DNA of 64,000 bases, from positions 42,800-106,799 of the forward strand of contig JABDNT010000081.1 of the NCBI GenBank assembly GCA_013043685.1. The letters are read 5' to 3'. Shown here in pieces: positions 5,694 to 41,629 of the stretch. Below the pieces are notes generated by a model that worked only from the letters and a program-made list of their open reading frames with translations, searched no databases and was not told the DNA's origin. This DNA is from Flavobacteriaceae bacterium (lineage in GTDB: Bacteria; Bacteroidota; Bacteroidia; Flavobacteriales; Flavobacteriaceae). A program made the position numbers and the translations under genes. Numbering within the stretch: position 1 is the first letter of the stretch; each line of letters begins with the position of its first letter.

Positions 5694-5694
5694 T

Positions 5695-5988: not shown

Positions 5989-6004
5989 CCGATCCAACAT
6001 CACA

Positions 6005-7255
6005 TTGAAGTTTTTTCGATACATAACAATAATAATAGTGTTGTTGGCGGGTAAATCTGTGCCTGCAAAAACCATTGAAGTATGCAAAAAATGCACTTAC
6101 AGTGAAATCGGCAAGGCAGTAGAGGCGGCTAATGATTACGATACCGTTTTGGTGAGAAAAGGAACCTATAAGGAAGTCAATATATTAATAGACAAACCCC
6201 TTGTACTAAAAGGAGAAAACTACCCGGTTATCGATGGCGAACTTAAAGGGGAGATCATCACCATTACTTCCGATGATGTTACGGTGGACGGACTATTCAT
6301 TATCAATGTTGGCACGAGTTATACTGTTGATTATGCCGCAGTACGGGTTATTAAAAGTAAGAACTTCCTTATACAGAATTTGGTCCTGGAAAAACTCTTC
6401 TTCGGAATTTACCTTGAAAAGTCTGAAAATGGCCGTGTGTACCATAACAACATAATAGGCGATGCTGAAGAGGAATACAACTCGGGCAACGGGATTCAGC
6501 TATGGTACAGTAAAAATATTGAAATAGAGCAAAATATTATCTCTCATGTTCGCGATGGTATATATCTGGAATTCGCAGACGATTGTATCATAAAGAACAA
6601 TATCAGTTCCAACAACGTGCGTTACGGCCTCCATTTCATGTTTTCCAACAACGACATATATTCCAACAATACCTTCGAAAATAATGGAGCCGGTGTTGCG
6701 GTGATGTTTTCTAAAGAGATTAAGATGTACAACAATGTATTCAGGGATAATTGGGGATCGGCGGCATATGGGATGTTACTGAAGGAAATAAATGATTCGG
6801 AGATCATGGGTAATACTTTCCAGGAAAATACTGTAGGAATTAATATTGAAGGGTCCAATCGTATTACTTATTCCAATAACGACTTTATACGCAATGGTTG
6901 GGCTATTAAATCGAGAGGGGCTTGTTATGCCAACCTTTTTACTGAAAATAATTTCCTTTACAACTCCTTCGATCTTTCCTATAACAGCAAATTAAACGAC
7001 AATAAGTTCGAGAAAAATTACTGGAGTAATTACGCAGGTTATGACCTCGACAAGGATGGAATAGGAGATGTTCCGTATCGTCCCGTAAAGTTATTCTCTT
7101 ACGTGGTGAACAGAACTCCGGAAGCCATTATTTTACTACGAAGTCTTTTTACCGATATTATTGATTTTTCTGAAAAGGTGTCTCCGGTTTTTACGCCTGA
7201 TAACCTTCTAGATATCCAACCGAAAATGAAACAAATCGTCCATGATCGAAATTAG
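6005..7255 (+). CDS. nosD: Nitrous-oxide reductase maturation protein NosD (periplasmic parallel beta-helix)
   Basis: TTG start. Repeated NN.I..N..G beta-helix repeats. Located between nosL and nosF. Confidence 0.9.
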   Translation: MKFFRYITIIIVLLAGKSVPAKTIEVCKKCTYSEIGKAVEAANDYDTVLVRKGTYKEVNILIDKPLVLKGENYPVIDGELKGEIITITSDDVTVDGLFIINVGTSYTVDYAAVRVIKSKNFLIQNLVLEKLFFGIYLEKSENGRVYHNNIIGDAEEEYNSGNGIQLWYSKNIEIEQNIISHVRDGIYLEFADDCIIKNNISSNNVRYGLHFMFSNNDIYSNNTFENNGAGVAVMFSKEIKMYNNVFRDNWGSAAYGMLLKEINDSEIMGNTFQENTVGINIEGSNRITYSNNDFIRNGWAIKSRGACYANLFTENNFLYNSFDLSYNSKLNDNKFEKNYWSNYAGYDLDKDGIGDVPYRPVKLFSYVVNRTPEAIILLRSLFTDIIDFSEKVSPVFTPDNLLDIQPKMKQIVHDRN

Positions 7256-7952
7256 GGGACTTTATAAGAAGTACGGCAAGAACGAGGTGCTGAAAGGTGT
7301 AGATCTCGCGATCGAGGAAAAGAAGATCGTGGCGGTATTGGGGCCCAATGGTTCTGGGAAGACCACCTTTATAAAAAGTATACTGGGCATGGTCTTGCCC
7401 AGCAAGGGGGATATTATAATGGAAGGAAAGTCCATTAAAAAAGAATGGAAATACCGCAATAACATAGATTATTTGCCTCAGATCGCCAATTTTCCGAATA
7501 ACCTTACGGTGAAAGAACTCATCAATATGATCAAGGATCTTCGACAAAAAAAATCTGCAGATGACGGTGCACTGGTGGAACTCTTTAAGCTTGAGCCATT
7601 TTTGAACAAGAAGCTGGGAAATCTTTCCGGTGGGACGAAGCAAAAAGTGAATATCCTACTCACTTTTATGTTCGACAGCCCCATCATAATCCTCGATGAG
7701 CCAACATCCGGTCTCGATCCTATTTCACTGATTCGCCTGAAAGAACTAATAGATACCGAAAAAAAGAAAGGGAAGACCATTATCATTACTTCCCATATCA
7801 TGAATTTTGTAGAAGAAGTAGCCGATGAAATTGTTTTTCTACTGGAAGGTAAGATCTATTTCAAAGGAAGTATTTCAGAATTAAAGGAGAAAACGAACCA
7901 ACCCGATTTCGAACACGCGATCGCATCCATCTTAACGCAATCCTATGCTTAA
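7242..7952 (+). CDS. nosF: ABC transporter ATP-binding protein NosF
   Basis: Walker A GPNGSGKTT, signature LSGGTKQK, Walker B IIILDEPTSGLD. Overlaps nosD by 14 nt. Confidence 0.9.
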   Translation: MIEIRGLYKKYGKNEVLKGVDLAIEEKKIVAVLGPNGSGKTTFIKSILGMVLPSKGDIIMEGKSIKKEWKYRNNIDYLPQIANFPNNLTVKELINMIKDLRQKKSADDGALVELFKLEPFLNKKLGNLSGGTKQKVNILLTFMFDSPIIILDEPTSGLDPISLIRLKELIDTEKKKGKTIIITSHIMNFVEEVADEIVFLLEGKIYFKGSISELKEKTNQPDFEHAIASILTQSYA

Positions 7953-8727
7953 AATACTGAAATACAGCTTTTACGATCTTATGCGAAGCCGCTGGAGCTA
8001 TGTTTATTTCGTATTTTATTTAGTCCTTGGATTTGTACTGCTATTTCTTAATAACAACGTATCGAAAGCCGTGATCACCCTAATGAATGTGATCATTATC
8101 CTGGTGCCCCTTATCGGGACCATTTTTGGCGTGATGTATTACTATAATTCAAAAGAATTTACGGGGCTACTTTTGGCGCAACCCATAAAACGTTCCTTGA
8201 TTTTCCTGGGACAATACCTGGGTGTAGCACTTTCTTTATCCATGAGCCTGATCATCGGGTTGGGTATTCCGTTTATTCTCTACGGAATATTCCGTTCGGA
8301 TGCCATCTGGGATTTCTCCTTGCTTTTGATCACCGGAACCTTCCTCACCCTTATATTCACAGCATTGTCTTTCAATATTGCGCTCAGCAACGAGAACAGG
8401 ATCAAGGGATTCGGCTACGCTATTTTACTATGGTTGTTTATGGCCGTGATCTACGACGGTATCTTCCTGATGTCCCTGATGATCTTCGAGGACTATCCTT
8501 TGGATACATTCTCACTAACTGCTACGATGTTCAATCCCATAGATCTTTCCCGGGTATTAATATTACTCAAACTGGATATTTCAGCATTGATGGGCTATAC
8601 CGGGGCCTTGTTTCAGAAATTCTTTGGAACCAATTTTGGAATGTTCCTGTCTATTGGCATACTCATTCTCTGGGTTGTGATCCCCGCCTGGTTTATTGAG
8701 CGAAAAGCTAACCGTAAAGATTTTTAG
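7945..8727 (+). CDS. nosY: ABC-2 type permease NosY
   Basis: Polytopic membrane protein overlapping nosF by 8 nt. Canonical nosDFY order. Confidence 0.85.
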   Translation: MLKILKYSFYDLMRSRWSYVYFVFYLVLGFVLLFLNNNVSKAVITLMNVIIILVPLIGTIFGVMYYYNSKEFTGLLLAQPIKRSLIFLGQYLGVALSLSMSLIIGLGIPFILYGIFRSDAIWDFSLLLITGTFLTLIFTALSFNIALSNENRIKGFGYAILLWLFMAVIYDGIFLMSLMIFEDYPLDTFSLTATMFNPIDLSRVLILLKLDISALMGYTGALFQKFFGTNFGMFLSIGILILWVVIPAWFIERKANRKDF

Positions 8728-14534: not shown

Positions 14535-15482
14535 ATGTCTCACCTTTCCAACAAAGCTAAGCATTATGGGTTGATTGCCCTAAAAGTTTTAATACTTGCC
14601 GCGACTTTTTGGTTCATTTACAGCCGACTATCATCCCTTGAGAATACCGCCTGGGATACGTTTAGAACAGCGTTATCCGGATTAAATCTGTTCTACATTT
14701 TATTCTTTCTGCTTCTTGCAGTATTGAACTGGCTGCTGGAAATCAGAAAATGGCAAATGTTGGTAACTAAGATTGAAAAGATCAGGCTTCAAGATGCTGT
14801 TAAGCAGTGTTTATCCGCATTAAGTGCGGGACTCTGGACCCCGAATCGAATAGGTGAATACGGCATAAAACCCTTGTATTTTCCCAAGCAACAACGCAAA
14901 AAAATCATGGCTCTGAACCTATTGTCGAACCTTTCCCAAATGCTAGCAACAATCTTATTCGGCCTTCCCGGTTTATTGTATTTCTTATATCGTTACAATA
15001 TCGAAGTTCCGGCCTGGAAGCCTCTTTCGCTATTGTTCCTGATCGCCGCCATGCTTATGGCGGGATATTATTTCAGAAAGAGACAATTACTTATACAAGG
15101 ACTCAGCCTTGAGAACCTTGTTGGTTTCACCCGAAGGATTTCGTTGAGAATACGATGGCAAGTGATCTTACTATCGGTCACGCGGTATGTGGTGTTTGCC
15201 AGTTCGTTTTACTTTCTATTAAGGTTCTTCGGAACTGATATTGAGTTCCTGAATGCAGCTCCGCTTATTACATCCATGTACCTGATCGCATCTGTGTTGC
15301 CGTCCTTTTTCTTTTCTGAAGTTGCCATAAAAGGCGGGGTGGCCCTCTGGATCTTTTCTGTTGCGGGCTATGATGAGATCCCTGTTCTGTGTACGGCGAT
15401 GGCCATGTGGATATTGAATTTTGTGTTGCCAGCCATCATTGGAGCATTCTTTGTTGGAAAATTTAAACTTGTCTCACAATGA
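14535..15482 (+). CDS. Flippase-like (lysylphosphatidylglycerol-synthase TM region / UPF0104) membrane protein
   Basis: About 8 TM helices. Overlaps the downstream GT2 gene by 4 nt. Confidence 0.6.
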   Translation: MSHLSNKAKHYGLIALKVLILAATFWFIYSRLSSLENTAWDTFRTALSGLNLFYILFFLLLAVLNWLLEIRKWQMLVTKIEKIRLQDAVKQCLSALSAGLWTPNRIGEYGIKPLYFPKQQRKKIMALNLLSNLSQMLATILFGLPGLLYFLYRYNIEVPAWKPLSLLFLIAAMLMAGYYFRKRQLLIQGLSLENLVGFTRRISLRIRWQVILLSVTRYVVFASSFYFLLRFFGTDIEFLNAAPLITSMYLIASVLPSFFFSEVAIKGGVALWIFSVAGYDEIPVLCTAMAMWILNFVLPAIIGAFFVGKFKLVSQ

Positions 15483-16615
15483 TCGTGGTGCATATATTAG
15501 CCATAGCGACCCTGATTTATTTCCTTGCCATTTTCTACCTCACTTATGGTGTTTATAAGCTAAGGCGCTTCAAACAAATGGCTGATACCACGGTTAACCA
15601 ATTTAGCATTGTTATCCCTTTTCGGAATGAGGCAGATCGCATCATTCCTTTATTGATTTCACTAAATGAACTTGAATATCCAAGGGACAAATTTGAAGTC
15701 ATACTGGTAGACGACGATTCTACCGATAGTTCTGTTATGGTCATTGAGGAGCATCTTCAAAACAGTACTTTGGACTGGAAAATCAAGCCTAACAAACGTA
15801 AAACCGCCTCCCCCAAAAAAGATGCTATTACCACTGCCATCACTTCTTCCCGAAACGACTGGATTGTAACTACCGATGCCGATTGTATAATTCCAAATCA
15901 ATGGTTGAAAAGGATCGATTCATTTATTCAAAAGCAAGACCCGGTAATGGTCTGCGGCCCGGTATCGTTTCAGGCATCACGTTTATGGTCTTTAAGTTCG
16001 CAATACCAGATTGTGGAAGGGATCGCACTTCAGGGTGTATCGATGGGAGGTTTCGGACACGAATCACCACTGCTTTGCAATGGGGCGAACCTGGCATATA
16101 AGAAAGAAATATTTCAGCAGGCAGGTGGGTATACAGGTAATTCGGAAATAGCCAGTGGGGATGACATTTTCTTGATGGAATCCTTACGTCGAAAACATCC
16201 GGAAAGAATAAGATTTATTAAGGATCGAGCAGTCATTGTTAAAACGCCGGTCATGAAGAACTGGCGTGATATTATTCAGCAGCGTATACGCTGGGGTTCT
16301 AAAACATCAAGACAACGAAACTGGACGGCAAAAGGAATTGCTATTATAATCACGGTATCCAACTTAATCCTGGGAATTGCGCTGCTTTCTTTACCCTTTA
16401 ACTGGCAGTCCAAAGATCTCATCATTCAAATAGGGTGCTCTAAAATTGTTTTGGATCTCTATTTCATGGCCCAAACACATCTTTTCCTGCGCCAAAAACT
16501 CAATTTTCTCATGATCATTGTACTCGCTGTGATTTATCCATTCATTTCCAGCTACATAGCCATCAGGAGCATTTTTGGCGGTTACACCTGGAAAGGGCGG
16601 GAATTCAGGCACTAA
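15479..16615 (+). CDS. Glycosyltransferase family 2 (membrane-anchored)
   Basis: FSIVIPFRNE, ILVDDDSTD, TDADC, QRIRWG (QxxRW-like) motifs. Confidence 0.85.
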   Translation: MIVVHILAIATLIYFLAIFYLTYGVYKLRRFKQMADTTVNQFSIVIPFRNEADRIIPLLISLNELEYPRDKFEVILVDDDSTDSSVMVIEEHLQNSTLDWKIKPNKRKTASPKKDAITTAITSSRNDWIVTTDADCIIPNQWLKRIDSFIQKQDPVMVCGPVSFQASRLWSLSSQYQIVEGIALQGVSMGGFGHESPLLCNGANLAYKKEIFQQAGGYTGNSEIASGDDIFLMESLRRKHPERIRFIKDRAVIVKTPVMKNWRDIIQQRIRWGSKTSRQRNWTAKGIAIIITVSNLILGIALLSLPFNWQSKDLIIQIGCSKIVLDLYFMAQTHLFLRQKLNFLMIIVLAVIYPFISSYIAIRSIFGGYTWKGREFRH

Positions 16616-16658
16616 TTCAATATTTTTTTTACCTTTAACCGAATCAAATCTAGCCCAT

Positions 16659-17543
16659 ATGAAACGCCTACTCCTTATTTTTGGCTTTGTCATAGCCAGT
16701 TGCGCATTTACATTCGGACAGCAGCAATATACTGTTGACGGTCAAACATATTCATTGAAAACCGAGGTAGAAGGAACCATACAGCTCCTGTGGAACACCA
16801 TTGGCGAGGACTACCGTTATTTTATTAAGAAAGGTAATGATATTGCCGAACTCAAGAATACCCGATCCGAAAATGGTTACAGTGAAGAATATAAAGATGT
16901 TTTGAAGCTGTTTACCAATGATTCCCCGGGGGATATCGATAATACAAAATTAACCCTGGCAAGCCTCAAGAAGTATTTCAGAAGTTATAATAAACGTGTA
17001 GATCCATCCTATGATGATTCTATAGAGAATATCGAGATCAAATTGCGCTTAGGGCCCTTTGCAGGGGTATCCAATGCGATCTTCACACAAAATGAAAGCA
17101 ATGCCATCTTGTTTGCAGCCGGTGCCGATCTGGAAGTTGTGGACGAAGTGAAATTGAGAAGGCATTCTGTGGTTCTCAGGTTTAAACAAACCTTCGAGAA
17201 TAGCGAATTCAGTTACAATGCGTCTCAATTCTCCCTGAATTATCGCTTCAAGTTTGTGAAGACTGAAAATGTGGACGTCTTTGTGAATGGTAAGTTCGTT
17301 GCGTATACGTACTCTACGCGTGACTTTGAAGTAACCACCATGAATAATGGAATAACCACAACCAGAATTGAATCGGCTTCAGGAGGAGATATAAATGCTC
17401 CAGCTACTTTTGGCCTGGGTACCGATGTAAAACTGGGTAAAGGACAGTTGTTTTTCACTTATAATGACATCTTCGGGTTAGGAGTGGATAGTAATGGTGA
17501 ATTTCCCCTGGATATTTCGGTAGGATATAAATTCGGTCTATAA
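16659..17543 (+). CDS. Hypothetical secreted / outer-membrane beta-rich protein
   Basis: ORF trimmed to MKRLLLIFGFVIASCAFTFGQ (signal peptide). The C-terminal residue pattern ends in ...YKFGL. Confidence 0.55.
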   Translation: MKRLLLIFGFVIASCAFTFGQQQYTVDGQTYSLKTEVEGTIQLLWNTIGEDYRYFIKKGNDIAELKNTRSENGYSEEYKDVLKLFTNDSPGDIDNTKLTLASLKKYFRSYNKRVDPSYDDSIENIEIKLRLGPFAGVSNAIFTQNESNAILFAAGADLEVVDEVKLRRHSVVLRFKQTFENSEFSYNASQFSLNYRFKFVKTENVDVFVNGKFVAYTYSTRDFEVTTMNNGITTTRIESASGGDINAPATFGLGTDVKLGKGQLFFTYNDIFGLGVDSNGEFPLDISVGYKFGL

Positions 17544-31354: not shown

Positions 31355-31555
31355 TGTATTTAATTGTGTAACTTTAAGTCAACAATCTGCTCTATTCGAG
31401 TAATATCCCAATTTATGGGAATGAAACACCCGGTGTTAAGCCGGGTTTTTCATTAATATACTTTTACATAATGGCTATCTGGTCCTTTAATCACCAAAAT
31501 ACTTTTACATTTGTACTGCAACAGGAAATAACCATTTACTCATTTCTTCCTAAGT

Positions 31556-33019
31556 ATGAAATCCATTGCTGTTAAGATTAGTGCTACTACAATTATCTAT
31601 TTCATTCTAATTGTCGCCTTTGCGCTCAGGTTATACAATTTAAACTATGCGGGGTTATGGAATGATGAATTATATACGGCTAACATGGCTAATCCGGGTA
31701 GATCTATCAGCAATGTTATTTTCAGGTTAAAGCTCGATATTCACCCGCCATTGCACAATATACTCTCCAATCTATGGAGCAGGATATTTAGTTATAACGA
31801 CACCTCGTTACGTGTTTTTAATGTACTGATCGGAGTATTTGGGGCATTTTCCATCTATAAATTGGCTAAACTTTTATTCAATAGTAAAGTTGCTTTATAT
31901 GCTATGCTTTTGGTTGTAGTAAACTCATTTCTTATACAGTATAGCCAGGAGGTAAGGGCATATGCTTTACTGTTTCTGCTGTCGAATTTTTCTTATTTCT
32001 TTTATGTGAAGCTTACTCGTGGCCTTCTTACCAGGAAGAACATCATTGGATATGGTCTTGTCACAACAGCACTGATATATACGCATTACTTCGGATTATT
32101 TGTAGTTGCATCGCAAGTTATCATACTTTTTCTTGTGGTAAAGTGGAAAGATATCAAAGCAAATCTGTTGCGTTACGGGTTGGCGTTCGTTATACCGGGA
32201 TTGTTATTTCTGTTTTGGGCACCTACCATGTATAAGCATCTTACCAAGACCCTCGGGTCATGGCGTGTTAAACCTACTCCTGAGATATTGATAGAATATT
32301 TCCAGGGATTTTTTAATGATTATATCATATCAAGCATTGCTTTAATTTTGTTTTTCCTAACCGGTCTGTATTTTCTTTTAAAATTATTTATAAAGCTTCC
32401 CAAGGTCAAAGATTTTGTAGGGAAGCGATCCAAGGAATTATTGATCATCTTTTTATGGGCACTGATCTATTTCCTTATCCCATACTTGAAATCCACATTT
32501 TCCAGTAGTATGATGGGCTTGAAATATTTTATTGCCATGACAGGACCCATTATCATTATGTTGGCGTTTTATATCGATAGAATAAAAGGCTCACAGATTA
32601 GAAATGGGATCGTTAATGGACTCATTATATATAGTGTTCTAGTGTTATTTCTAAAAAGCAATCCATATTATCATTCAGCTACTTCCTACAGGGAAATTGC
32701 TCAAGAGGCTAAGGCAATCAATAACGATGCTCCTGTTCTTTATTTATGCAAAGACGGATTCTATTTCGACTATTACCTCCACCAGAATAATTTCATGGAT
32801 CGGCGGGAAGATTTTGTTTCCTTCTTAACATTAGTTAAAAAAGATAGTCCAAAGGAATATTTTGTATTCCTGGATCTCAGGTTAACTCCGGAGAAATTCA
32901 AAAACGGGGTGCCCGTTATCCCGGGATATGAAGAAGTGTCTTCAAAGACCTTCAGAAATGCAGCGAATATTAAAACGGTTCAACTGGTACATTATAAAAA
33001 GACAGATCAATCCATATGA
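31556..33019 (+). CDS. GT-C fold glycosyltransferase (family 39 / ArnT-PMT-like), uses polyprenyl-phosphate sugar donors
   Basis: 487 aa polytopic protein with an N-terminal NYAGLWNDELYT loop motif typical of ArnT/PMT-like enzymes. 4-nt overlap with the next gene. Confidence 0.7.
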   Translation: MKSIAVKISATTIIYFILIVAFALRLYNLNYAGLWNDELYTANMANPGRSISNVIFRLKLDIHPPLHNILSNLWSRIFSYNDTSLRVFNVLIGVFGAFSIYKLAKLLFNSKVALYAMLLVVVNSFLIQYSQEVRAYALLFLLSNFSYFFYVKLTRGLLTRKNIIGYGLVTTALIYTHYFGLFVVASQVIILFLVVKWKDIKANLLRYGLAFVIPGLLFLFWAPTMYKHLTKTLGSWRVKPTPEILIEYFQGFFNDYIISSIALILFFLTGLYFLLKLFIKLPKVKDFVGKRSKELLIIFLWALIYFLIPYLKSTFSSSMMGLKYFIAMTGPIIIMLAFYIDRIKGSQIRNGIVNGLIIYSVLVLFLKSNPYYHSATSYREIAQEAKAINNDAPVLYLCKDGFYFDYYLHQNNFMDRREDFVSFLTLVKKDSPKEYFVFLDLRLTPEKFKNGVPVIPGYEEVSSKTFRNAANIKTVQLVHYKKTDQSI

Positions 33020-33879
33020 AAGCTATCTTTCAGTTATTACGGTTGAATCAATGGATTAAGAACCTCTTTGTGTTCCTTCCAGTATTCTTTTCGGGCAATC
33101 TTCTGAATCGGGAACTACTCGTAGATTCCTGTTTTGCATTTTTAACCTTTTGCTTCACTACGAGTATGATCTATATACTGAATGACTATAAGGATGTTGA
33201 AAAAGATCGTATGCATCCTGTCAAGAAACACAGACCACTGGCTTCAGGAAAACTCAGTAAAAGAACGGCGTTGCTGCTATTCGTTCCATTGATCATAGGT
33301 TTAGGCCTGGTTGTTTTCTATCGATTCGATTTGAACGACACCTGGCCATTGATCGTCTATTTTGTGCTTAATTTGCTCTACACCTTCGGCCTGAAGTCGA
33401 TTCCTATACTAGACGTAGGCATTATCGCCGTTGGTTTTGTGTTGAGAGTTGTTCTGGGTGGGCTCGTAACCGGCATTATTGTTTCGAAATGGGCCTTTCT
33501 ATTAACGTTCGCACTGGCACTTGTCCTTGCACTGGGAAAAAGAAGAGGTGAATTGCTCTCTACGGATGGTAGTTCCAGAAGATCCCTGAAAGGATATAAT
33601 TTATCATTTTTAGACGCAGCTTTAACGAGCACGGTAACAATAACCATAGTGTGTTATATCATGTATTCGGTTTCTCCTGCAGTGGAGAACAGCCTGGGAT
33701 TTAAACACGTTTATATAACGTCCGTCTTTGTTATCCTGGGAGTATTGAGGTATTTACAGCAAACATTCGTTTATAGTAGTACCGAATCCCCTACCCGATT
33801 ACTGTATAAGGATCTATTTATTCAGGTAACAATTCTATTGTGGATTAGTACCTTTGCACTGATAATTTACTTTAAATAG
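33016..33879 (+). CDS. UbiA-family decaprenyl-phosphate phosphoribosyltransferase-like enzyme (Rv3806c-like)
   Basis: NDYKDVEKDRMHPVKKHRPLASG motif. About 8 TM helices. Confidence 0.75.
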   Translation: MKAIFQLLRLNQWIKNLFVFLPVFFSGNLLNRELLVDSCFAFLTFCFTTSMIYILNDYKDVEKDRMHPVKKHRPLASGKLSKRTALLLFVPLIIGLGLVVFYRFDLNDTWPLIVYFVLNLLYTFGLKSIPILDVGIIAVGFVLRVVLGGLVTGIIVSKWAFLLTFALALVLALGKRRGELLSTDGSSRRSLKGYNLSFLDAALTSTVTITIVCYIMYSVSPAVENSLGFKHVYITSVFVILGVLRYLQQTFVYSSTESPTRLLYKDLFIQVTILLWISTFALIIYFK

Positions 33880-33883
33880 TCTT

Positions 33884-35191
33884 TTGCAGAAAAAAAAAGA
33901 AATAAGCAACTGGGGAAACTTTCCAACCAGCATTTCAAGTGAACAATGGATCTTAAATTCAAAAGATCCAGGAATTACTTTCAATCAAACTGAAAAGATA
34001 ATTCCGCGCGGCAACGGGCGATGTTATGGTGATGCCTCGCTGGGAGAAAATATCGTGAGTACGCGCTACCTTACTAATTTCCTGGAACTCGACGAGGATA
34101 CCCTGGAAATGGAATGTGAGTCCGGAGTACTTTTTTCTGACCTATTAGATCTTTTAATTCCAAAAGGGTTATTTCTACCCGTTACACCGGGAACTAAATT
34201 TATAACCGTTGGGGGTGCTGTGGCTGCCGATGTCCATGGTAAAAATCATCATAAGGATGGCTGTTTTTCATCGTACGTGATTTCCTTTCAGCTACTTACC
34301 AGTGATCATAAAATTATAAATTGTTCAAAAGAAGAGAACAGTGAATTATTCTGGCAAACCATTGGCGGGATGGGATTAACCGGAATTATTCTGCGCGTAA
34401 GGTTCCGACTGCTTCAAATCGAAACCTCATACATTTCCCAGGAATCTATTAAAGCCAAAAACCTGGACGAAATCTTCGACCTCTTCGAGGATTCCAAAGA
34501 CTGGAAATACACTGTAGCCTGGATAGACTGTCTTCAGAAAAAGAAAAATTTAGGCAGGTCTGTACTTTTAAGGGGGGAGCATGCATCCATCGATGACCTG
34601 GATCAAAACAAAAGAAAAAGGCCGTTGCTTGTTGAGAATAAGAAAAGCTTCTCAATTCCATTCTTTTTCCCCGCATTTACTCTGAATTGGTGGACGGTCA
34701 AGATCTTCAACTTGTTATATTTCTATAAACAGCGCAGCAAAAAGAAAAGCGCTGTCGTTTCTTATAATACCTTCTTCTATCCTTTGGATTCAATAGAAGG
34801 CTGGAATAAGATCTATGGTAAGAAAGGATTCATTCAATATCAATTTGTGGTTCCATTAGAAACCAGTAAAGAGGTATTGCGTGAAATATTAGAATTAATT
34901 GCCGTTAGTCGTCAGGCTTCATTTCTAGCGGTATTGAAGCTTTTTGGCGAGAATTCTCCGGAAGCCATTAATTCATTTCCAATGAAAGGGTATACCTTAG
35001 CACTGGATTTTAAGGTGACCCAAAAAACCCTGGAATTAGTCCCTAAAATGGATGCCATCATTCTAAAACATAAAGGTAGGATCTATCGCGCTAAGGACTG
35101 CGTATCAGATCCTCGATTAACCAATTATTTGCAGTTACCGGAATCAAATTTTGAATCACTGCAAAGCATAAGGATAAACTCGAAGATATGA
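33884..35191 (+). CDS. FAD-binding oxidoreductase, DprE1-like
   Basis: TTG start. SNWGNFP...GNGRCYGDASLG N-terminus and a PCMH-type FAD domain. Confidence 0.7.
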   Translation: MQKKKEISNWGNFPTSISSEQWILNSKDPGITFNQTEKIIPRGNGRCYGDASLGENIVSTRYLTNFLELDEDTLEMECESGVLFSDLLDLLIPKGLFLPVTPGTKFITVGGAVAADVHGKNHHKDGCFSSYVISFQLLTSDHKIINCSKEENSELFWQTIGGMGLTGIILRVRFRLLQIETSYISQESIKAKNLDEIFDLFEDSKDWKYTVAWIDCLQKKKNLGRSVLLRGEHASIDDLDQNKRKRPLLVENKKSFSIPFFFPAFTLNWWTVKIFNLLYFYKQRSKKKSAVVSYNTFFYPLDSIEGWNKIYGKKGFIQYQFVVPLETSKEVLREILELIAVSRQASFLAVLKLFGENSPEAINSFPMKGYTLALDFKVTQKTLELVPKMDAIILKHKGRIYRAKDCVSDPRLTNYLQLPESNFESLQSIRINSKI

Positions 35192-35907
35192 TAGTATTAG
35201 GGGCAAATTCGGAAATCTCAAGAGAATTCGTTGAGTTAATGATTCAAAAGGAAGGCCTGAAAAAGGTGTACTTGTTCTCTTCCAATGTGGATACCCTGGA
35301 GCCTTTCGGACAACATTTGAAGGTGAAATACGGGATTGATGCGGGCATCTATCATTATGACCTTTTAGAACTCCCCGACTTTGATTTTTCACAATTGGAT
35401 TATAACCTGGTATTTTGTGCCTCGGGATATTTAGGCAGTCAGCCCGATATTGACCTTAGTCACAAAATGGATAACGACAAGATCCTGAAAATCAATTACT
35501 CCAAATTAGTATTAGCACTCAATGCGATTTCCATGGATTTGATAAAAAAGCAGACTGGAACGATCATCGCATTAAGTTCCGTAGCTGGAGAAAGGGGCCG
35601 GAAGAGCAATTTTATCTACGGGAGCGCAAAAGCAGGTTTCACAGCGTATTTAAGTGGCTTGAGGAACTATTTATTCAGCCATAAAATTCATGTTTTAACT
35701 GTGAAGCCAGGCTTCATGAATACCAAAATGACAGCTGGCCTGGATTTGCCTAAAAGGCTAACTATCTCGCCCGAGAAGGCAGCTAAATTGATATATAAAG
35801 GTTATAAAAGAAGAAAGAACACCATTTATATTGCAGCTATTTGGCGTTATATCATGTTCATAATTAGGAACATTCCTGAATTTATCTTTAAAAAGATGTC
35901 ATTGTGA
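35188..35907 (+). CDS. Short-chain dehydrogenase/reductase, DprE2-like
   Basis: VLGANSEISREF nucleotide-binding turn and catalytic YGSAKAG. 4-nt overlaps on both sides. Confidence 0.7.
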   Translation: MIVLGANSEISREFVELMIQKEGLKKVYLFSSNVDTLEPFGQHLKVKYGIDAGIYHYDLLELPDFDFSQLDYNLVFCASGYLGSQPDIDLSHKMDNDKILKINYSKLVLALNAISMDLIKKQTGTIIALSSVAGERGRKSNFIYGSAKAGFTAYLSGLRNYLFSHKIHVLTVKPGFMNTKMTAGLDLPKRLTISPEKAAKLIYKGYKRRKNTIYIAAIWRYIMFIIRNIPEFIFKKMSL

Positions 35908-36494
35908 GCAAGTTGTTCTTATATGATTTTGACGGCACCATTTCACGTAAGGACACCTTATTTGATTTCCTGAGATTTACTATCAGAAAGGATAAACTTT
36001 ATTTTGGCTACCTGGTGCTAACTCCAATATTCGTCTTAACCTTCCTCAGGCTTAGCAAAAGGTCTTTCGCCAAAGAAAGGCTGATATCCCACTTCCTTAA
36101 AGGAAAAACGAGAGCCGAATTAGCTCAAATGTCAGAGAAGTTTTTGAACAATATGCTTACAGAAAAGAAGTTTAGAACAAGTGCACTGGCTTCAATAAAA
36201 GATGATAAAAAGGAAGGGGCCGTTTATATTGTGTCCGCTTCTCTCGATATCTGGTTGAAAGATATTGCCAACCATTTAGGGGTGCATTTAATATGCACCC
36301 GGGCAAAGTTCGAGAATAATGTATTCACCGGTAAGTTTTTGGGTCCTAACTGTAATAATGAAGAGAAGCCTCGAAGAGTGCAATCAGAAATATCCTTGGA
36401 GGAGTATAATTCTATTACCTATTACGGAGATTCAAAAGGTGATCTCGCCATGAAGGAAATTGTGGATCACTTTGAATACAGAAAATTTGAATGA
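35904..36494 (+). CDS. HAD-IB family phosphatase
   Basis: GTG start. Motif I LYDFDGTIS and C-terminal GDSKGD. Confidence 0.75.
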   Translation: MSKLFLYDFDGTISRKDTLFDFLRFTIRKDKLYFGYLVLTPIFVLTFLRLSKRSFAKERLISHFLKGKTRAELAQMSEKFLNNMLTEKKFRTSALASIKDDKKEGAVYIVSASLDIWLKDIANHLGVHLICTRAKFENNVFTGKFLGPNCNNEEKPRRVQSEISLEEYNSITYYGDSKGDLAMKEIVDHFEYRKFE

Positions 36495-36765
36495 TACGGT
36501 ACTGCCTCAATTGCCTTCTGATCTTTCCTTTAGCCTTCTAAAATTGAATATATCCCTCTGAATCACATCGCGTACTGCTTAATGTTAATATTTTGACAAA
36601 CAGAAGAGCAATGTTCAATCTTTTGGTAAATTTGTTCAACAAGTGTCCGTATCAATCTAGGAATTTTCGCCATTATTATGTTGCTGTCCACAAAATTTAG
36701 TGCACAGGATTTCCAGGACCAGGCATTAAACAGGATAAAACAGAAAATTGACCGATTCGAAATTC

Positions 36766-39507
36766 ATGAAAAAAATTCTCCTTCTTGTGTTACTTTTCAC
36801 AGCAACTGTATCTTTTGCCCAGGTGAAACTCCAGGGTGTTGTGAAGGACAGTATTAGTGGTAGTCCGCTCGAATTGGCCAATGTAATCGCCATTGATCAG
36901 AACACCAGCACTATGGAATCCTATGCGGTGACCAATCCTGAAGGAAGGTATGTCCTTCGTTTGGGAAGGAACGGCACCTACAAACTGCAGGTCAGTTATA
37001 TAGGAATGAAAGCTGTCGAGACTATTATTAATACCAGCGAAGAAGATATTACAAGAAATTTTGAATTAAGTGCGGATAATACACTGGATGAGGTTAACAT
37101 TACCTATGAAATGCCTGTCTCAGTTAGTGGTGATACGCTTACCTATAACGCCGATTCGTTCAATACAGGAACAGAGAGGAAACTAGAAGATGTGCTGGAA
37201 AATCTTCCAGGCGTGGAAATTAACGAAGAAGGCCAGATAGAAGTGGAAGGCAAGGTTGTGAATAAACTCATGGTGAACGGAAAGGACTTTTTCGATGGAG
37301 ATTCAAAGCTGGCATCCAAGAATATTCCCTCCAAGGCAGTTGATAAAATTCAGGTGCTGCGTAATTATTCGGAAGTTGGTCAACTAAGCAGGGTTTCCAA
37401 TAACCAGGACAATGTAGCTTTGAATATCAAACTCAAAGAGGGCAAAGAGAAATTCTGGTTCGGTAATGTGACTGCTGGTGGTGGTTTCTCTCCGGAGGAT
37501 GAACTCTATTTACTTCAACCCAAATTGTTCTATTATAGTCCGAAGTTCAGCCTAAATTTCATTGGTGACCTCAATAACACTGGTGAAGTGGCACTAACCA
37601 GACGTGATATACGAGGTTTTGGTGGCGGTTTCAGGCTTCCTAGCAGGACCAGTGGCACCAATATCAACTTAGGTGATAACAGTCTTAACTTCCTAACCAA
37701 CCAGGGTAATGCGCTGGAGATTGAATCGAAGCTTGCGGCCACGAATTTCAACTATTCCCCAAATCAAGCCCTTGACATCAGCGGATTCTTCATCTTTAAT
37801 AGCAGTAGAATACTTTCTAAGGAGACAAGCTTTGTGCAATATACCGATTCAGACCTGGGAATTCCCGATGAAGCCACGGAACAACGAAGCAGGGAGCGAT
37901 CGGATCAGGGATTACTAAAGCTAAGTGCATCCTACAGTCCCAATGTGAACAATCAATTGGACTACGATGTCCTGGGGCGTTTTTCGAACGATACCCAGGT
38001 GCAGAATTTATTTTCATCGGTAGTTGGAAATACCAGTCAGTTCGAGGAAGTTAAACCCTTCAGCATTAACCAAAATATAAACTACTATTACACCCTGAAC
38101 GAAACCAATATTTTCGCCTTTGAAGCGCAACATCTGATAAAAGATGAAGATCCTTTCTACAGTGCATTACTGGAGAATGACCCAACAAATAACGATGCAA
38201 TGGATCCTGATGAAAGGGATGCTTTTGACAACACCGCAGACGCCTTAGGCCTAAATACGACGCTCAATAATTATAACCTGGGGCAGAACAGGCGAATTAA
38301 ATCGAACCAGGTGGACGCAAAGCTCGACTGGTATAATATTCTTAACGACAGAAGCAATATCAACTTCACCCTTGGAACTATTTTAAGCAGACAAGAATTC
38401 AACTCCGATATTTTCCAGTTTCTGGAGAATGGGGCCCGGTTTAATCCAACACCAACCATCAATGATGGCCGGGCTGGTAACGATACCGAATACAATTTCA
38501 GTGATGTCTATCTTGGAGTTCATTATAGGGTTAAAGCAGGTAAATTTACTATTACACCAGGGTTTTCGGTCCACGCTTATGCAAACAAGAATAGTCAGTT
38601 CAATGAAACCTTTGAGGACAATTTTTTTAGACTGTTACCGGACTTCGAAACCAGGATCCAACTAAAAAAGAGTGAGAGCTTAACGTTCAATTACAATATG
38701 CAGAACCAGTTCACAGATGTTACCCGCCTGGCACAGGGACTTGTATTAAATAACTTCAACAGCATACAGTTTGGTAAGCCGGAATTGCAGAATGCACTCT
38801 CTCACAATTTGAGTTTATTCTACCGAAGTTTTAACCTATTCAACTATACCAATGTCTTTGCCCGTGTAGCTTATTCTAAAAATATTGATCAGATAAGAAG
38901 TCTGACGAATTTCGAGAATGTGATCAGGACCAGTACTTTTTTTAATTCCGACTTCGCCGATGAGACTTTTACTGCCTTCGGACGGGTGCAACGTACTTTT
39001 GGCAAGATACGAGCCAGTTTGAACGCAAACTTCAATTACAGCAAGATCAACCAATTCATCCAGGGCAGGCGATCTGTGAACGAAGGATTTACTCAAAGTT
39101 ATACACCTGGGGTACGGACAAATTTCAGGTACGCACCTAATGTGAGTGTAAGATACCGATATAGCATTTCGACGAACAACCAGGGAACTAATGAAACAAA
39201 GTTCATTACAAATGCCCCCTCGATTGAATTTGACGCATATATTTTAAAAGCGTTTACTTTCAGGACAAATTATACCTATAACTCATTGAGTGATGAGGAC
39301 GGTGAAATCAATTCGTTTCAATCCTGGGACGCTTCCCTGTCATATCGAAAAGATCGGGATGCGAAATGGGAGTATGAAATTCAGGCGACCAACCTATTAA
39401 ATATCGATTCCCAGATCCGGAACAGTGCCAATAACCTTTCCGTATTTACTTCGGAAACATTTATACAACCGCGATTTGTTACATTCAGGTTCGTATATAC
39501 TTTATAA
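36766..39507 (+). CDS. TonB-dependent receptor-like outer membrane protein with CarboxypepD_reg domain
   Basis: ORF trimmed to MKKILLLVLLF. GVVKDSISGSPLELANV and a plug-like LEDVLENLPGVEI. Ends in an aromatic-rich barrel (FRFVYTL). Confidence 0.8.
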   Translation: MKKILLLVLLFTATVSFAQVKLQGVVKDSISGSPLELANVIAIDQNTSTMESYAVTNPEGRYVLRLGRNGTYKLQVSYIGMKAVETIINTSEEDITRNFELSADNTLDEVNITYEMPVSVSGDTLTYNADSFNTGTERKLEDVLENLPGVEINEEGQIEVEGKVVNKLMVNGKDFFDGDSKLASKNIPSKAVDKIQVLRNYSEVGQLSRVSNNQDNVALNIKLKEGKEKFWFGNVTAGGGFSPEDELYLLQPKLFYYSPKFSLNFIGDLNNTGEVALTRRDIRGFGGGFRLPSRTSGTNINLGDNSLNFLTNQGNALEIESKLAATNFNYSPNQALDISGFFIFNSSRILSKETSFVQYTDSDLGIPDEATEQRSRERSDQGLLKLSASYSPNVNNQLDYDVLGRFSNDTQVQNLFSSVVGNTSQFEEVKPFSINQNINYYYTLNETNIFAFEAQHLIKDEDPFYSALLENDPTNNDAMDPDERDAFDNTADALGLNTTLNNYNLGQNRRIKSNQVDAKLDWYNILNDRSNINFTLGTILSRQEFNSDIFQFLENGARFNPTPTINDGRAGNDTEYNFSDVYLGVHYRVKAGKFTITPGFSVHAYANKNSQFNETFEDNFFRLLPDFETRIQLKKSESLTFNYNMQNQFTDVTRLAQGLVLNNFNSIQFGKPELQNALSHNLSLFYRSFNLFNYTNVFARVAYSKNIDQIRSLTNFENVIRTSTFFNSDFADETFTAFGRVQRTFGKIRASLNANFNYSKINQFIQGRRSVNEGFTQSYTPGVRTNFRYAPNVSVRYRYSISTNNQGTNETKFITNAPSIEFDAYILKAFTFRTNYTYNSLSDEDGEINSFQSWDASLSYRKDRDAKWEYEIQATNLLNIDSQIRNSANNLSVFTSETFIQPRFVTFRFVYTL

Positions 39508-39556: not shown

Positions 39557-41629
39557 ATGAAAAAATTCATTATTCTATTTCTTTTTCTACCCTTTTTATC
39601 TTTCGCTCAAGAAGGGAGAATTGGAAAAGTATTTGAAGCAGTAAACGCCGAAATAGCGAGATCGGGAGAATTTCAGCAATTCCAAATTTTTAATCAACAA
39701 ACAAGGAGCTCGAGCAATGATTACGCAGAGAGTGTAAATGACGGGGTGATTCTTGAAATGGATCAAGAGATGATCAATAATTTACGCCGTCAGAGTCCTG
39801 CCCGAATGAGTCTTACTTTACCATTTAGATCAACTGGGGAAACCGTAGCTCTGGATCTAATTCAGGTAGAGGTTTTTTCTCCTTCCTTAACTGCTGTAAC
39901 CGATACCGGAATTGATTTAGCTAATACTGTCGATTTTGGTGTACATTATCGTGGAGTGATCGCTGGAAACCAGAACTCTCTGGTATCCATCAGTATCTTC
40001 GAAACACAAGTAATTGGCTTTATTTCCAATAGTGAAGGCAACTTCACCTTAGGGAGGCTTAGTGACTCGAGTAGCGATCATATCCTTTATAAGGATACCG
40101 ACTTAAGACAAGCTCAATCATTTGAATGTTTTACTGAAGACGACAACGAAGGATACACAGCCGAACAACTTTCAAACCCAGGGAATCGTGACCCGGGAGA
40201 TGTTATTGAGATCTACATTGAAGCGGGATCGACTGTTGCGGGTTCTTTTGGTGGTGATCTACCCAATACGGTTGCCTTTCTAACAGGTGTTTTTGCGCAG
40301 TGTTATGCACTTTATGCCAATGATGGTATCAGCGCACGTACGTCCAGCATGTTCGTCTGGACCGAATTAGATCCATATACCGGGACCAATACTACTACTA
40401 AACTAAACCAGTTCAAAGCTAATTTGCCACAAAATGGATTTGATGGCGACCTTGGGCACCTGGTCGAAGTACAGAATATAGGTGGTCAGGCTGCAGGGTT
40501 CTCTGGTCTTTGCGCGGCAAACACCGATGACAGTCTTTGTGTAAGTGGTTTCCTTGGAACGAGCTTTAACACCATTCCAACCTACTCCTTCAATGTATAT
40601 CTCATAGCGCACGAAATGGGTCACCTTATGGGATCAAGACACACACACGCCTGTGTCTGGAACGGTGATAATACAGCTATCGACGGCTGTGCCGGATTTA
40701 CAGAAGGCGGCTGCCCGCTGCCCGGGCTGCCTGCCGGAGGTGGAACCATAATGAGTTATTGTAATAATACCGGTGTAGGTGTTAATTTCAATGAAGGTTT
40801 CGGGCCTCAACCTACAGCCGTGATCCTTAACAATATAGATGCCGTAGGAAATTGCCTCGTGCCTATAGGTACTCTGGTCCCGCCTACAGCCGTGTGTACG
40901 AATTACACCGCCGTATTAGATACGAACGGAACTGTTACAATTGTACCGGCAGATGTTGACGGAGGAAGTTATGATGATCTTGGAATTACGAATTATACTA
41001 TTGACATCGACACATTTGATTGTGACGATCTTGGTGACAATGATGTGTTGCTAACTGTTACCGATGGTGATGGCTTGTCGCATACCTGTATAGCTATTGT
41101 GAAAGTCGTAGATGAAACAGATCCTGTTGTAACTGATTGCCCGGCAGATTTCACTGAAGTTATACCGCAGGGTACGCAGTACGAACTGCTGGATTATACC
41201 GGAACAGTTACCGCCACAGATAACTGTCCATCAGTAACGATCAGCCAGGACCCTGACCCTGGAACTTTACTGGACGAAGGTGTATATACTATCACGCTTA
41301 CAGGAGAAGATGAAGACGGTAATGAAGGAAGTTGTTCATTTGAGCTAACCGTTGAGTTTATCCTGGCCAATTATGATGCCTCTTTATTGTCTAGTCTCGC
41401 ACTCTATCCTAATCCCGCTTTTGAGTACGTTCAATTGAGCAATCCTCAGAACCTGGAATTGGAAAGAATTGCCATATATGACATAACCGGAAGATTGATC
41501 CAGCAGGAGGATCTTACCGATATGGGAACAGAGGTTAGTATCGATGTTTCTGCGCTCGCTGCTTCAACTTATTTTGTTATAATCAGCAATGATGAGAGCC
41601 AGGTTGCGAAGCAATTAATTAAGAAATAA
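39557..41629 (+). CDS. Reprolysin-like (M12B) zinc metalloprotease with HYR-like modules and a T9SS C-terminal sorting domain
   Basis: HEMGHLMGSRH zinc motif. Repeated D-rich beta modules. C-terminus LYPNPAFEYVQL...STYFVIISN. Confidence 0.8.
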   Translation: MKKFIILFLFLPFLSFAQEGRIGKVFEAVNAEIARSGEFQQFQIFNQQTRSSSNDYAESVNDGVILEMDQEMINNLRRQSPARMSLTLPFRSTGETVALDLIQVEVFSPSLTAVTDTGIDLANTVDFGVHYRGVIAGNQNSLVSISIFETQVIGFISNSEGNFTLGRLSDSSSDHILYKDTDLRQAQSFECFTEDDNEGYTAEQLSNPGNRDPGDVIEIYIEAGSTVAGSFGGDLPNTVAFLTGVFAQCYALYANDGISARTSSMFVWTELDPYTGTNTTTKLNQFKANLPQNGFDGDLGHLVEVQNIGGQAAGFSGLCAANTDDSLCVSGFLGTSFNTIPTYSFNVYLIAHEMGHLMGSRHTHACVWNGDNTAIDGCAGFTEGGCPLPGLPAGGGTIMSYCNNTGVGVNFNEGFGPQPTAVILNNIDAVGNCLVPIGTLVPPTAVCTNYTAVLDTNGTVTIVPADVDGGSYDDLGITNYTIDIDTFDCDDLGDNDVLLTVTDGDGLSHTCIAIVKVVDETDPVVTDCPADFTEVIPQGTQYELLDYTGTVTATDNCPSVTISQDPDPGTLLDEGVYTITLTGEDEDGNEGSCSFELTVEFILANYDASLLSSLALYPNPAFEYVQLSNPQNLELERIAIYDITGRLIQQEDLTDMGTEVSIDVSALAASTYFVIISNDESQVAKQLIKK

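Follow-up and report, generated by a model that had tools for sequence, protein, structure and literature searches.

Glycans that contain D-arabinofuranose (D-Araf) are usually seen as a hallmark of the Mycobacteriales, with the pili of Pseudomonas aeruginosa PA7 regarded as a curiosity. Does a flavobacterium also encode the means to build and transfer this sugar, and if so, onto what? The question is raised by five genes on the forward strand of a 64,000-nucleotide stretch of contig JABDNT010000081.1 (Flavobacteriaceae bacterium, assembly GCA_013043685.1), a stretch to which we refer as the window; the operon under study spans positions 31556-36494. The original prediction, made from the sequence alone, had read these genes as a complete lipid-linked pentofuranose pathway of the mycobacterial type together with a GT-C glycosyltransferase. 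Our analysis directly establishes homology of the encoded proteins to such enzymes, conservation of their catalytic residues, a GT-C fold and a synteny that is both conserved and modular. From these data, we consider it quite probable that the operon supplies a lipid-linked D-Araf donor together with its transferase, and likely that it forms a self-contained system for periplasmic pentofuranosylation of the type defined by Kelly et al. (2024, PNAS, PMC11127046), in its D-arabinofuranose form.

The gene calls of the original prediction proved exact. All five same-strand open reading frames (ORFs) lie where it had placed them, as do the three 4-nt overlaps that join the GT-C gene to the UbiA gene (ATGA, 33016-33019), the DprE1-like gene to the DprE2-like gene (ATGA, 35188-35191) and the latter to the phosphatase gene (GTGA, 35904-35907); between the UbiA stop and the start of the DprE1-like gene lies a spacer of 4 nt. 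The overlaps suggest that the five genes are translationally coupled. The motifs it quoted (NDYKDVEKDRMHP...HRPLASG, GNGRCYGDASLG and YGSAK) are all present, and its five protein assignments were upheld by comparisons with Pfam, NCBIfam and PDB sequences and folds. The flavobacterial assignment is reasonable as well; the nearest cultured relatives of the operon genes are the Flavobacteriaceae Aureitalea, Rasiella and Marinirhabdus, with 58-60% identity for the DprE1-like protein.

Core enzymes of the predicted donor pathway

The UbiA-family protein (Pfam UbiA, 1.8e-19) has 7-9 transmembrane (TM) helices and scores 213.5 bits (4.3e-63) on the NCBIfam DPPR-synthase model NF008977, compared with 31 bits for UbiA and 18.8 bits for the chlorophyll synthase ChlG; it does not group with the MenA, UbiA or chlorophyll synthase enzymes. 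In a PDB search, the only matches (two) are to Rv3806c at 1.2e-32, with entry 8j8j aligned over residues 4-285. The conserved residues N56-D57-xx-D60-xxx-D64 and R176-xx-E179 align with the Rv3806c motif and are equivalent to loop-II N247/D248/D251/D255 and loop-IV R366/E369 of the Citrobacter protein ORF15, which matter for activity (Kelly et al. 2024, PMC11127046), as their counterparts do in Rv3806c. The window protein is predicted to be an Rv3806c-type polyprenyl-phosphate 5-phosphoribosyltransferase (PPPRS/DPPRS). The Prokaryotic Genome Annotation Pipeline (PGAP) names its Bacteroidota homologues "decaprenyl-phosphate phosphoribosyltransferase," so an annotation-level hint is already public.

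The oxidation and reduction at C2' carried out by DprE1 and DprE2 are established chemistry. In the operon, the flavin adenine dinucleotide (FAD)-binding protein (Pfam FAD_binding_4, 9e-17) scores 384 bits (1.2e-114) on NF053785, with the next model at 43.7 bits and GlcD at 36 bits. Its best PDB match is DprE1 of Mycobacterium tuberculosis and Mycobacterium smegmatis (5e-74, 252 bits), and the next family follows at 2e-8 and 36 bits. The alignment shows an HGKNHH segment at the FAD site identical to that of DprE1 and places K404 on M. smegmatis K425; in M. tuberculosis numbering, we take these to correspond to H132/K134 and to the catalytic lysine K418. No signal peptide was found in this protein, which is predicted to act as an FAD-dependent polyprenyl-phosphate-ribose 2'-oxidase. 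Ala373 stands where M. smegmatis has C394, the benzothiazinone-target cysteine (M. tuberculosis C387). Cys387 is the covalent target of the benzothiazinones and is dispensable for catalysis, so that, on this presumed mechanism, these DprE1 homologues are predicted to be insensitive to such covalent inhibitors.

The adjoining short-chain dehydrogenase/reductase (SDR; Pfam adh_short, 8e-19) scores 225 bits on NF005489 and 142 bits (2.5e-41) on the DprE2 model NF053786, against about 53 bits for FabG; the FAD protein does not group with GlcD, nor the SDR with FabG. NF005489 carries only the label "SDR family oxidoreductase," and because the DprE1-adjacent SDRs of Rhizobium, Ruegeria and Chondrinema match it at 322-366 bits, above its cut-off, it represents in practice the non-actinobacterial DprE2 family. 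The best PDB match of the window SDR is DprE2 (21gq_C, 6.8e-25; next match 2.5e-10). Its SSVAGERGRKSNFIYGSAKAG segment aligns with the DprE2 motif and the catalytic S...YGSAK (Ser/YxxxK) is kept, consistent with a predicted reductase that would convert the 2'-keto intermediate to arabinofuranose. A DprE1-anchored search of species-representative genomes returned 275 relatives, and the best 80 of these, together with the window, gave a set of 81 loci. The two epimerase genes adjoin in 62 of the 81, the window included.

The product of the last gene belongs to the haloacid dehalogenase (HAD) family (Pfam HAD, 6e-29) and clears the cut-off of TIGR01490 (HAD-IB) with 116 bits against 98. Its D8-F-D10-G-T nucleophile motif (loop I) is invariant among homologues, the GDxxGD motif IV is present, and its gene clusters with the cassette in 37 loci. 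Comparison by hhalign with the N-terminal HAD domain of fused HAD-UbiA proteins gave 96.5% (E 7e-10) over 87 columns, in the C-terminal half only, and a hidden Markov model (HMM) search matched the fused proteins weakly (E 0.01). A direct PDB sequence search found nothing at E<=0.01, and a family profile reached only generic HAD-IB/phosphoserine-phosphatase structures, which leaves the protein without a specific tie to any solved phosphoribose phosphatase. We predict that the protein is a polyprenyl-phosphate-ribose-5-phosphate 5'-phosphatase, a nonorthologous replacement of Rv3807c. A hydrophobic cap segment, YFGYLVLTPIFVLTFLRL (residues ~33-50), stays hydrophobic by eye across the aligned homologues and could keep the enzyme at the membrane, close to its lipid-linked substrate.

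The GT-C transferase, its donor modules and its possible acceptors

The first gene of the operon encodes a polytopic protein with about 9-13 TM helices that matches Pfam PMT_2 (PF13231) at 1.9e-10; the true PMT domain, PF02366, is not matched. An AlphaFold (AF2) model built from 38 homologues has a predicted local distance difference test (pLDDT) score of 91 and a predicted template modeling (pTM) score of 0.91, and Foldseek assigns it a GT-C_A fold with probability 1.00 to STT3, ArnT, Pmt4, ALG9/12 and PglB. ArnT gives the top template modeling score among solved structures (0.59-0.60 at 12% identity), with ALG12, Pmt4, STT3 and PglB near behind; AftA, AftB and Emb are weaker matches (Foldseek E 1e-3 to 8e-2), below ArnT, STT3 and PMT. 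At its C-terminal end, the model has a small alpha/beta domain (about 378-482), and no carbohydrate-binding module (CBM), MIR or TPR domain was found in it. R25, W35, D37, E38, P64, P65, R134 and Y136 are invariant in the family, D37/E38 across all 38 sequences, and D61-x-H63-P64-P65-L is nearly so, which gives the first periplasmic loop (loop 1) the "DE ... HPPL" signature seen in PMT_2-type enzymes.

A PDB sequence search with the GT-C returned no match at E<=1, ArnT, the PMTs and Emb/Aft included. By sequence, the protein is not a member of GT39, GT83 or GT53/85/89. It is probably not a GT136 enzyme either, judged by proxy from Rhizobium sp. CCGE531, whose system is among those listed by Kelly et al. 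(2024, PMC11127046): the 658-aa GT-C candidate of that strain gives BLASTP E 0.93 and an hhalign probability of 0.15% against the window protein, and has no PMT_2 match. The family profile likewise shows no significant similarity to the cassette-linked GT-Cs of Rhizobium sophoriradicis, Chondrinema and Rhizobium CCGE531. The predicted role of the window GT-C is transfer of a pentofuranose from polyprenyl phosphate to an acceptor.

What this transferase is coupled to varies among its relatives. The family, sampled by protein look-ups and a metagenome scan, is narrow, with about 35 clusters at >=40% identity before a drop to E about 1e-42; its HMM finds only four matches in the 81-locus set (the window and its closest relatives, loci L001-L003) plus one weak relative. 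Three configurations emerge. In configuration A, the order GT-C-UbiA-E1-E2-HAD is kept (E1 and E2 being the DprE1-like and DprE2-like genes), as in the window, L001-L003, L095/L105, L097, L098 and L106. In configuration B (L094, L099 and L100), a GT-C-UbiA-HAD unit lacks E1 and E2, with identities of 53, 64 and 54% for the three proteins, of which UbiA and HAD are orthologous to those of the window; such modularity is expected if E1 and E2 only set the identity of the sugar. The configuration B clade, made up of metagenome-assembled genomes (MAGs) of marine Flavobacteriaceae, is very abundant in marine metagenomes. In configuration C (L096/L104, L101 and L102/L103), the GT-C stands beside a GT2 of ~250 aa whose best, weak matches are the polyprenyl-phosphate sugar synthases PpgS, ArnC, PgfS and AglJ and, in the PDB, the GtrB protein sll0501; no pentose cassette was seen within the ~6-7-kb flanks.

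UbiA-HAD pairs without DprE1 or DprE2 also occur in Prevotella sp. oral taxon 299 (L091) and in an unverified human fecal record labeled "Bacteriophage sp." (L121, MT837543.1), a scaffold of 6.6 kb whose UbiA is 43% identical to that of the window. These pairs, like those of configuration B, are predicted to make a ribofuranose (Ribf) donor.

In a neighbor-joining tree of the GT-C family, built without bootstrap, members of configuration A are found in each of the two major clades, those of B nest next to L001, and those of C form one nested clade. This unbootstrapped topology suggests a family that began with the Araf cassette, lost the epimerases once and swapped its donor once. A comparison of cassette-linked with GT2-linked members for donor-specificity residues was uninformative, as D440/N is the single fixed difference.

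One could suppose that the GT-C is merely a neighbor with an unrelated donor and that the product of the cassette is used by a transferase encoded elsewhere, as the four-gene cassettes of Weeksellaceae without an adjacent GT-C, and the family members that adjoin a GT2 instead of the cassette, might suggest. The linkage argues otherwise. The GT-C and UbiA genes overlap by 4 nt at start and stop, their junction is kept in every cassette-bearing member of the family, and GT-C and cassette are linked in at least eight independent loci. The association has moreover been re-created in another gene order, since a 32%-identical homologue (P0040) lies at the 3' end of a UbiA-FAD-SDR-HAD cassette; other homologues at ~32% identity show no cassette linkage. 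We regard a bystander GT-C as highly improbable.

The pathway that we infer for the operon, including the C55 lipid, every enzymatic activity, the sugar and the acceptor, would run as follows. After phosphoribosyl transfer, the HAD-IB phosphatase would strip the 5'-phosphate to give undecaprenyl-phosphate (Und-P)-beta-D-Ribf. The DprE1-like flavoenzyme would oxidize this at C2', and the DprE2-like SDR would reduce the 2'-keto group with inverted stereochemistry to Und-P-beta-D-Araf. The lipid-linked sugar would reach the periplasmic face via a transporter encoded outside the operon, or possibly without a dedicated one, and the PMT_2-type GT-C, with its invariant D37/E38 loop, would place D-Araf onto the acceptor.

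The exchange of donor modules around one GT-C family leads us to read the window enzyme as a Gtr-type side-chain transferase with a changeable donor module. Some of its relatives are found within polysaccharide loci: L096, L101 and L102 also hold Wzy_C, GT4, Bac_transf and UDP-Glc dehydrogenase genes, and L095, of configuration A, lies among genes for MBOAT, NeuB and UDP-ManNAc dehydrogenase. Given this modular behavior and these contexts, the best candidate for the acceptor is a surface polysaccharide, with the sugar added to an O-antigen or capsule as a side chain. The window operon itself, however, stands alone, and that the acceptor is a polysaccharide we put at slightly less than an even chance.

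Two other acceptors were considered. The same donor could be used by an ArnT-like GT-C to modify lipid A or the lipopolysaccharide (LPS) core. The resemblance to ArnT extends from the fold to the similar size and the small C-terminal periplasmic domain, the PMT_2 family includes ArnT-like enzymes, P0040 lies close to a gene of the GT9 heptosyltransferase family, and the window operon is isolated from polysaccharide loci. A GT-C_A fold is uninformative as to the acceptor, however, no ArnT matched by sequence, and several GT-Cs of the narrow family are embedded in Wzy-type polysaccharide loci, so we judge this option unlikely. More doubtful still is a protein O-glycosyltransferase, PMT- or TfpW-like, that would place D-Araf on a periplasmic or surface protein. 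The name given by NCBI to the GT-C in contigs of GCA_018679655.1 and GCA_013042075.1, "glycosyltransferase family 39 protein," would fit such a role, as would the loop-1 DE motif, which PMTs presumably share, and the best-studied Gram-negative D-Araf system acts on pilin. Against this stand the missing PF02366 match, the lack of MIR and TPR domains and the polysaccharide contexts of the family, and no conserved acceptor candidate was found beside the GT-C in L001-L003, L095-L106 or the window.

Several observations weigh against a D-Araf system. The UbiA-family protein falls below two equivalog cut-offs (213.5 against 234 on NF008977 and 192.8 against 207 on NF008978), the DprE1-like protein reaches 384 of the 500 bits required by NF053785, and the SDR stays under both of its cut-offs (225 against 267 on NF005489 and 142 against 250 on NF053786), which makes the three family members, not demonstrated isofunctional orthologues. 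A Cytophagales UbiA homologue does clear the DPPR-synthase cut-off, at 250.7, and since the DprE1 homologues of Rhizobium (408) and Chondrinema (428) likewise miss the 500-bit cut-off, the latter appears tuned to actinobacteria. The substrate of the phosphatase is predicted from context, and none of the GT-Cs with a proven pentofuranose donor resembles the window GT-C in sequence. Neither the operon nor the rest of the 64-kb window yielded a GtrA, SMR, MATE or Wzx protein in a flippase search, and the operon lies outside any polysaccharide locus, among genes for TonB-dependent-receptor-like proteins and a protease of the type IX secretion system (T9SS). Finally, we found neither biochemistry on Bacteroidota members nor, in the searchable literature, a report of a D-Araf-containing glycan in this phylum.

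The low scores of E1 and E2 bear on whether the sugar is arabinose at all. The transferred sugar might instead be ribofuranose, the 2-keto sugar or some other epimer, or the two enzymes might have another substrate altogether; the same GT-C family functions without E1 and E2 in sister lineages, and a different SDR, ORF13, makes xylofuranose (Xylf) (Kelly et al. 2024, PMC11127046). Yet the catalytic lysine and the HGKNHH motif of DprE1 are kept, the pairing of the two genes is widespread in the 81-locus set, and oxidation followed by reduction at C2' yields arabinose as the only new stereochemical outcome. DprE1/DprE2 homologues also go with Araf in every characterized case cited by Kelly et al. 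(2024, PMC11127046). A non-arabinose product thus seems very unlikely, and D-Araf remains our preferred assignment.

Distribution of the cassette and setting of the operon

The original prediction had proposed looking for synteny in related genomes, and the same gene order does recur in independent ones. The best 80 of the 275 DprE1 relatives are mostly from Bacteroidota (Flavobacteriaceae, Weeksellaceae, Cytophagales and Chitinophagales). UbiA, E1, E2 and HAD are contiguous and in the same order in 32 of the 81 loci, mostly in Flavobacteriales but spanning the same four groups, with genes that usually overlap or nearly abut. In Chryseobacterium, Kaistella and Bergeyella, the cassette lies between unrelated conserved genes without an adjacent GT-C; in Empedobacter and Algoriella, it sits within polysaccharide loci. 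In Cytophagales, E1 and E2 are paired with other polytopic proteins, some of them PMT_2, and alphaproteobacterial loci combine a HAD-UbiA fusion, a GtrA-family protein, E1 and E2 with unrelated GT-C candidates. Proteobacterial and Balneolia loci do contain genes of the GtrA family. A membrane protein of 480 aa that recurs in some loci (c29) was rejected as a flippase: by eye it resembles an MBOAT acyltransferase, and its 487-aa counterpart in L095 carries a precomputed MBOAT match.

Thirteen Weeksellaceae loci (L004, L008, L013, L015, L020, L021, L024, L025, L027, L031, L033, L037 and L038), from Chryseobacterium, Kaistella, Bergeyella and relatives, hold the cassette in a conserved housekeeping neighborhood. 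By eye, the genes upstream of it seem to encode a subtilisin-like S8 peptidase plus an OmpA-like lipoprotein, and those downstream a cysteine desulfurase plus a thioredoxin. The envelope of these bacteria may carry the lipid-linked pentose constitutively, and the transferase would then be encoded at another site. On a plasmid of Chondrinema litorale (L090, NZ_CP111066.1), genes for a DPPRS, an FAD oxidoreductase and an SDR are flanked by two PMT_2 "GT39" proteins, a DUF2723 protein, two acyltransferases and an IS3 transposase; from this plasmid-borne cassette, the system can be mobile in Cytophagales. A Rhizobium sophoriradicis plasmid (L092, pCC511_2) and 36 Rhizobium plasmid records carry a HAD-UbiA fusion, GtrA, DprE1-like and DprE2-like proteins, two ~530-aa proteins without a Pfam match and a GT87, a set that by gene content is a predicted D-Araf-type system.

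The features of the window operon are collected in Table 1. The terminator-like hairpin upstream would mark its 5' boundary; in a hairpin scan, the terminator count around the operon was not higher than in shuffled sequence. The candidate promoter box was compared with TAnnTTTG, which we take to be the -7 consensus of the Bacteroidetes sigma-A, and inspection of the sequence near it revealed no clear -33 element. Downstream, the next gene begins ~270 nt past the HAD stop. The upstream gene, which encodes a 263-aa secreted coiled-coil protein, was rejected as a member of the system, as the hairpin lies between and the gene is not conserved in L001-L003. A recently acquired island was also rejected, because the operon GC content (0.37-0.39) is unremarkable for the window and no mobility genes were seen at its flanks.

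Table 1. Features of the operon and its upstream region, in window coordinates.
Feature	Position	Strand	Length (aa)	Remarks
Intrinsic-terminator-like hairpin, ACCCGGTGTTAAGCCGGGT + TTTTCATT	31428-31446	+		3' end of the upstream 263-aa gene; consensus match only
Candidate Bacteroidetes-type -7 promoter box, TACATTTG	31506-31513	+		43 nt 5' of the GT-C start codon; read by eye
GT-C glycosyltransferase gene	31556-33019	+	487	
UbiA-superfamily DPPRS/PPPRS gene	33016-33879	+	287	
DprE1-like FAD oxidase gene	33884-35191	+	435	TTG start
DprE2-like SDR gene	35188-35907	+	239	
HAD-IB phosphatase gene	35904-36494	+	196	GTG start

Elsewhere in the window, a CarboxypepD_reg/TonB-dependent-receptor-like gene (36748-39507) precedes a gene for a reprolysin-type metalloprotease with a HYR domain and a Por_Secre_tail, the T9SS cargo signal (39557-41629). 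A nitrous-oxide reductase (nos) cluster at 875-8727 encodes an Rrf2 regulator, a cytochrome c, a fasciclin-domain protein, NosZ (653 aa, nos_propeller), a 4-TM protein without a Pfam match, NosL, NosD, NosF and a NosY-like permease, a layout that resembles what we take to be that of clade II nosZ of Bacteroidota. At 14535-17543, the gene for a membrane protein of the LPG_synthase_TM family (315 aa) shares 4 nt with that of a membrane-anchored GT2 (378 aa), and the two are followed by a 322-aa ORF without a Pfam match; these genes may form a separate glycolipid or glycan module and bear no apparent relation to the pentofuranose operon. The window itself is matched by contigs of GCA_018679655.1 and GCA_013042075.1, MAGs labeled Bacteroidia bacterium.

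Significance and comparison with known systems

Two claims of the original prediction need to be narrowed. The pathway was called complete, which is slightly too strong, as no flippase or GtrA-like gene lies in the 64 kb and the phosphatase is a HAD-IB enzyme, not an orthologue of the PAP2 protein Rv3807c. The trait was also said to be undescribed for Flavobacteriia. This agrees with the literature, since no description of it in Bacteroidota was found in searchable sources and the phylum is absent from the text and supplement of Kelly et al. (2024, PMC11127046), but the novelty is smaller than claimed in view of that study and of the PGAP naming.

The most useful new observation is the A/B/C modular series within one GT-C family, a natural series of Araf, Ribf and GT2 donor modules for the study of donor specificity. 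As a tentative extension, D-Araf, with Ribf in sister lineages such as the marine Flavobacteriaceae clade and an oral Prevotella, could be a common and so far unreported addition to the envelope glycans of Flavobacteriales, Cytophagales and Chitinophagales, installed by PMT_2-type GT-Cs outside the known pentofuranose families; one GT-C family would then accept sugars from different donor modules (the Araf cassette, the Ribf cassette or a GT2) with its catalytic core almost unchanged, an instance of natural donor promiscuity. The cassette is conserved in many Bacteroidota, among them the clinically relevant Weeksellaceae Empedobacter, Chryseobacterium, Bergeyella and Riemerella and, in a ribofuranose form, an oral Prevotella, from which we predict that a major phylum makes an envelope glycoconjugate not yet described. 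Cultured strains in which to search for the glycan carry either the five-gene operon (Aureitalea sp. L0-47, Rasiella sp. SM2506 and Marinirhabdus gelatinilytica DSM 101478) or the cassette only (Empedobacter brevis ATCC 43319 and Chryseobacterium spp.). If such D-Araf glycans are indeed widespread, D-arabinan-degrading enzymes (GH172/GH183) would gain natural substrates well outside the Mycobacteriales, which may help account for such enzymes outside actinobacterial habitats. For glycoengineering, a compact PMT_2-type GT-C and a flippase-less operon would be added to the toolbox.

Among known systems, the mycobacterial pathway (Rv3806c, DprE1 Rv3790 and DprE2 Rv3791) provides the closest solved-structure relatives of the three core enzymes, with catalytic residues kept. 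It differs in using a C50 lipid, where the window presumably uses C55, in its PAP2 phosphatase (Rv3807c) in place of a HAD enzyme and in the GtrA-like Rv3789, which has no counterpart in the window. It also feeds an arabinan-building set of transferases, whereas the window encodes a single transferase that is not of the Emb, AftA or AftB type.

In P. aeruginosa PA7/Pa5196, D-Araf is placed on pilin by PsPA7_6245-6251 and TfpW (Harvey et al. 2011; bioRxiv 10.1101/2020.04.19.049825). Like the window operon, this Gram-negative system feeds a GT-C from DPPRS, DprE1 and DprE2 and needs no dedicated flippase: in strain PAO1, DPPRS, DprE1, DprE2 and TfpW suffice and the GtrA-like protein is dispensable (bioRxiv 10.1101/2020.04.19.049825), a minimal set that provides a precedent for the flippase-less operon of the window. 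TfpW, however, is a 646-aa protein with a TPR domain and DDX and proline-rich motifs, is encoded beside pilA and acts on pilin, and the Pseudomonas cluster also encodes a GtrA-like protein and a homologue of Rv3807c; the window has neither, nor is a pilin gene nearby.

With GtrABC and ArnC-ArnT glycosylation, the window system shares a GT-C_A fold nearest to ArnT and the arrangement of a stand-alone modifying module apart from the main glycan locus, and its sister GT-Cs of configuration C are paired with a small GT2 that matches polyprenyl-phosphate-sugar synthases. In those systems the donor derives from a nucleoside diphosphate (NDP)-sugar via a GT2; in the window it would derive from phosphoribosyl pyrophosphate (PRPP) via a UbiA-type enzyme, and neither GtrA nor ArnE/F is present.

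The nearest framework is that of Kelly et al. (2024, PMC11127046), who demonstrated a PRPP-derived polyprenyl-phosphate-pentofuranose and GT-C pathway biochemically and called it widespread, with examples from Citrobacter, Stenotrophomonas, Rathayibacter, Devosia, Burkholderia, E. coli, Rhizobium, Xanthomonas, Bacillus and a phage. It combines three components, namely a PPPRS that carries a PRP domain, a transporter and a GT-C; epimerases set the pentose, and DprE1/E2 homologues occur wherever the glycan carries Araf. In Citrobacter youngae O1/O2, these are ORF15 (PPPRS-PRP), ORF14 (MATE) and ORF12 (GT136), with or without the epimerase ORF13 (PMC11127046). The window operon is alike in encoding a PPPRS, a phosphatase and a GT-C together: a UbiA-type PPPRS, in which the essential N/D/D/D and R/E residues recur, for a PRPP-derived polyprenyl-phosphate-ribofuranose, a HAD phosphatase predicted to act on the 5'-phosphate, auxiliary epimerases that would fix the sugar in the same modular logic and a GT-C with an acidic residue after TM1 for the final periplasmic transfer. 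Its epimerase is a DprE1/E2 pair where Citrobacter has ORF13, and three variant features set it apart. The HAD-IB phosphatase is a separate protein, not an N-terminal HAD fusion as in ORF15, an architecture shared by the alphaproteobacterial HAD-UbiA fusions. No transporter is linked, MATE or SMR, in departure from the three-component definition. The GT-C, finally, is of a distinct PMT_2 type, lacks a CBM and has no detectable similarity to the Rhizobium CCGE531 enzyme. By homology and context, the window operon is a member, in a new phylum, of the known PRPP-derived pentofuranosylation systems; it overturns nothing and extends the 2024 framework.

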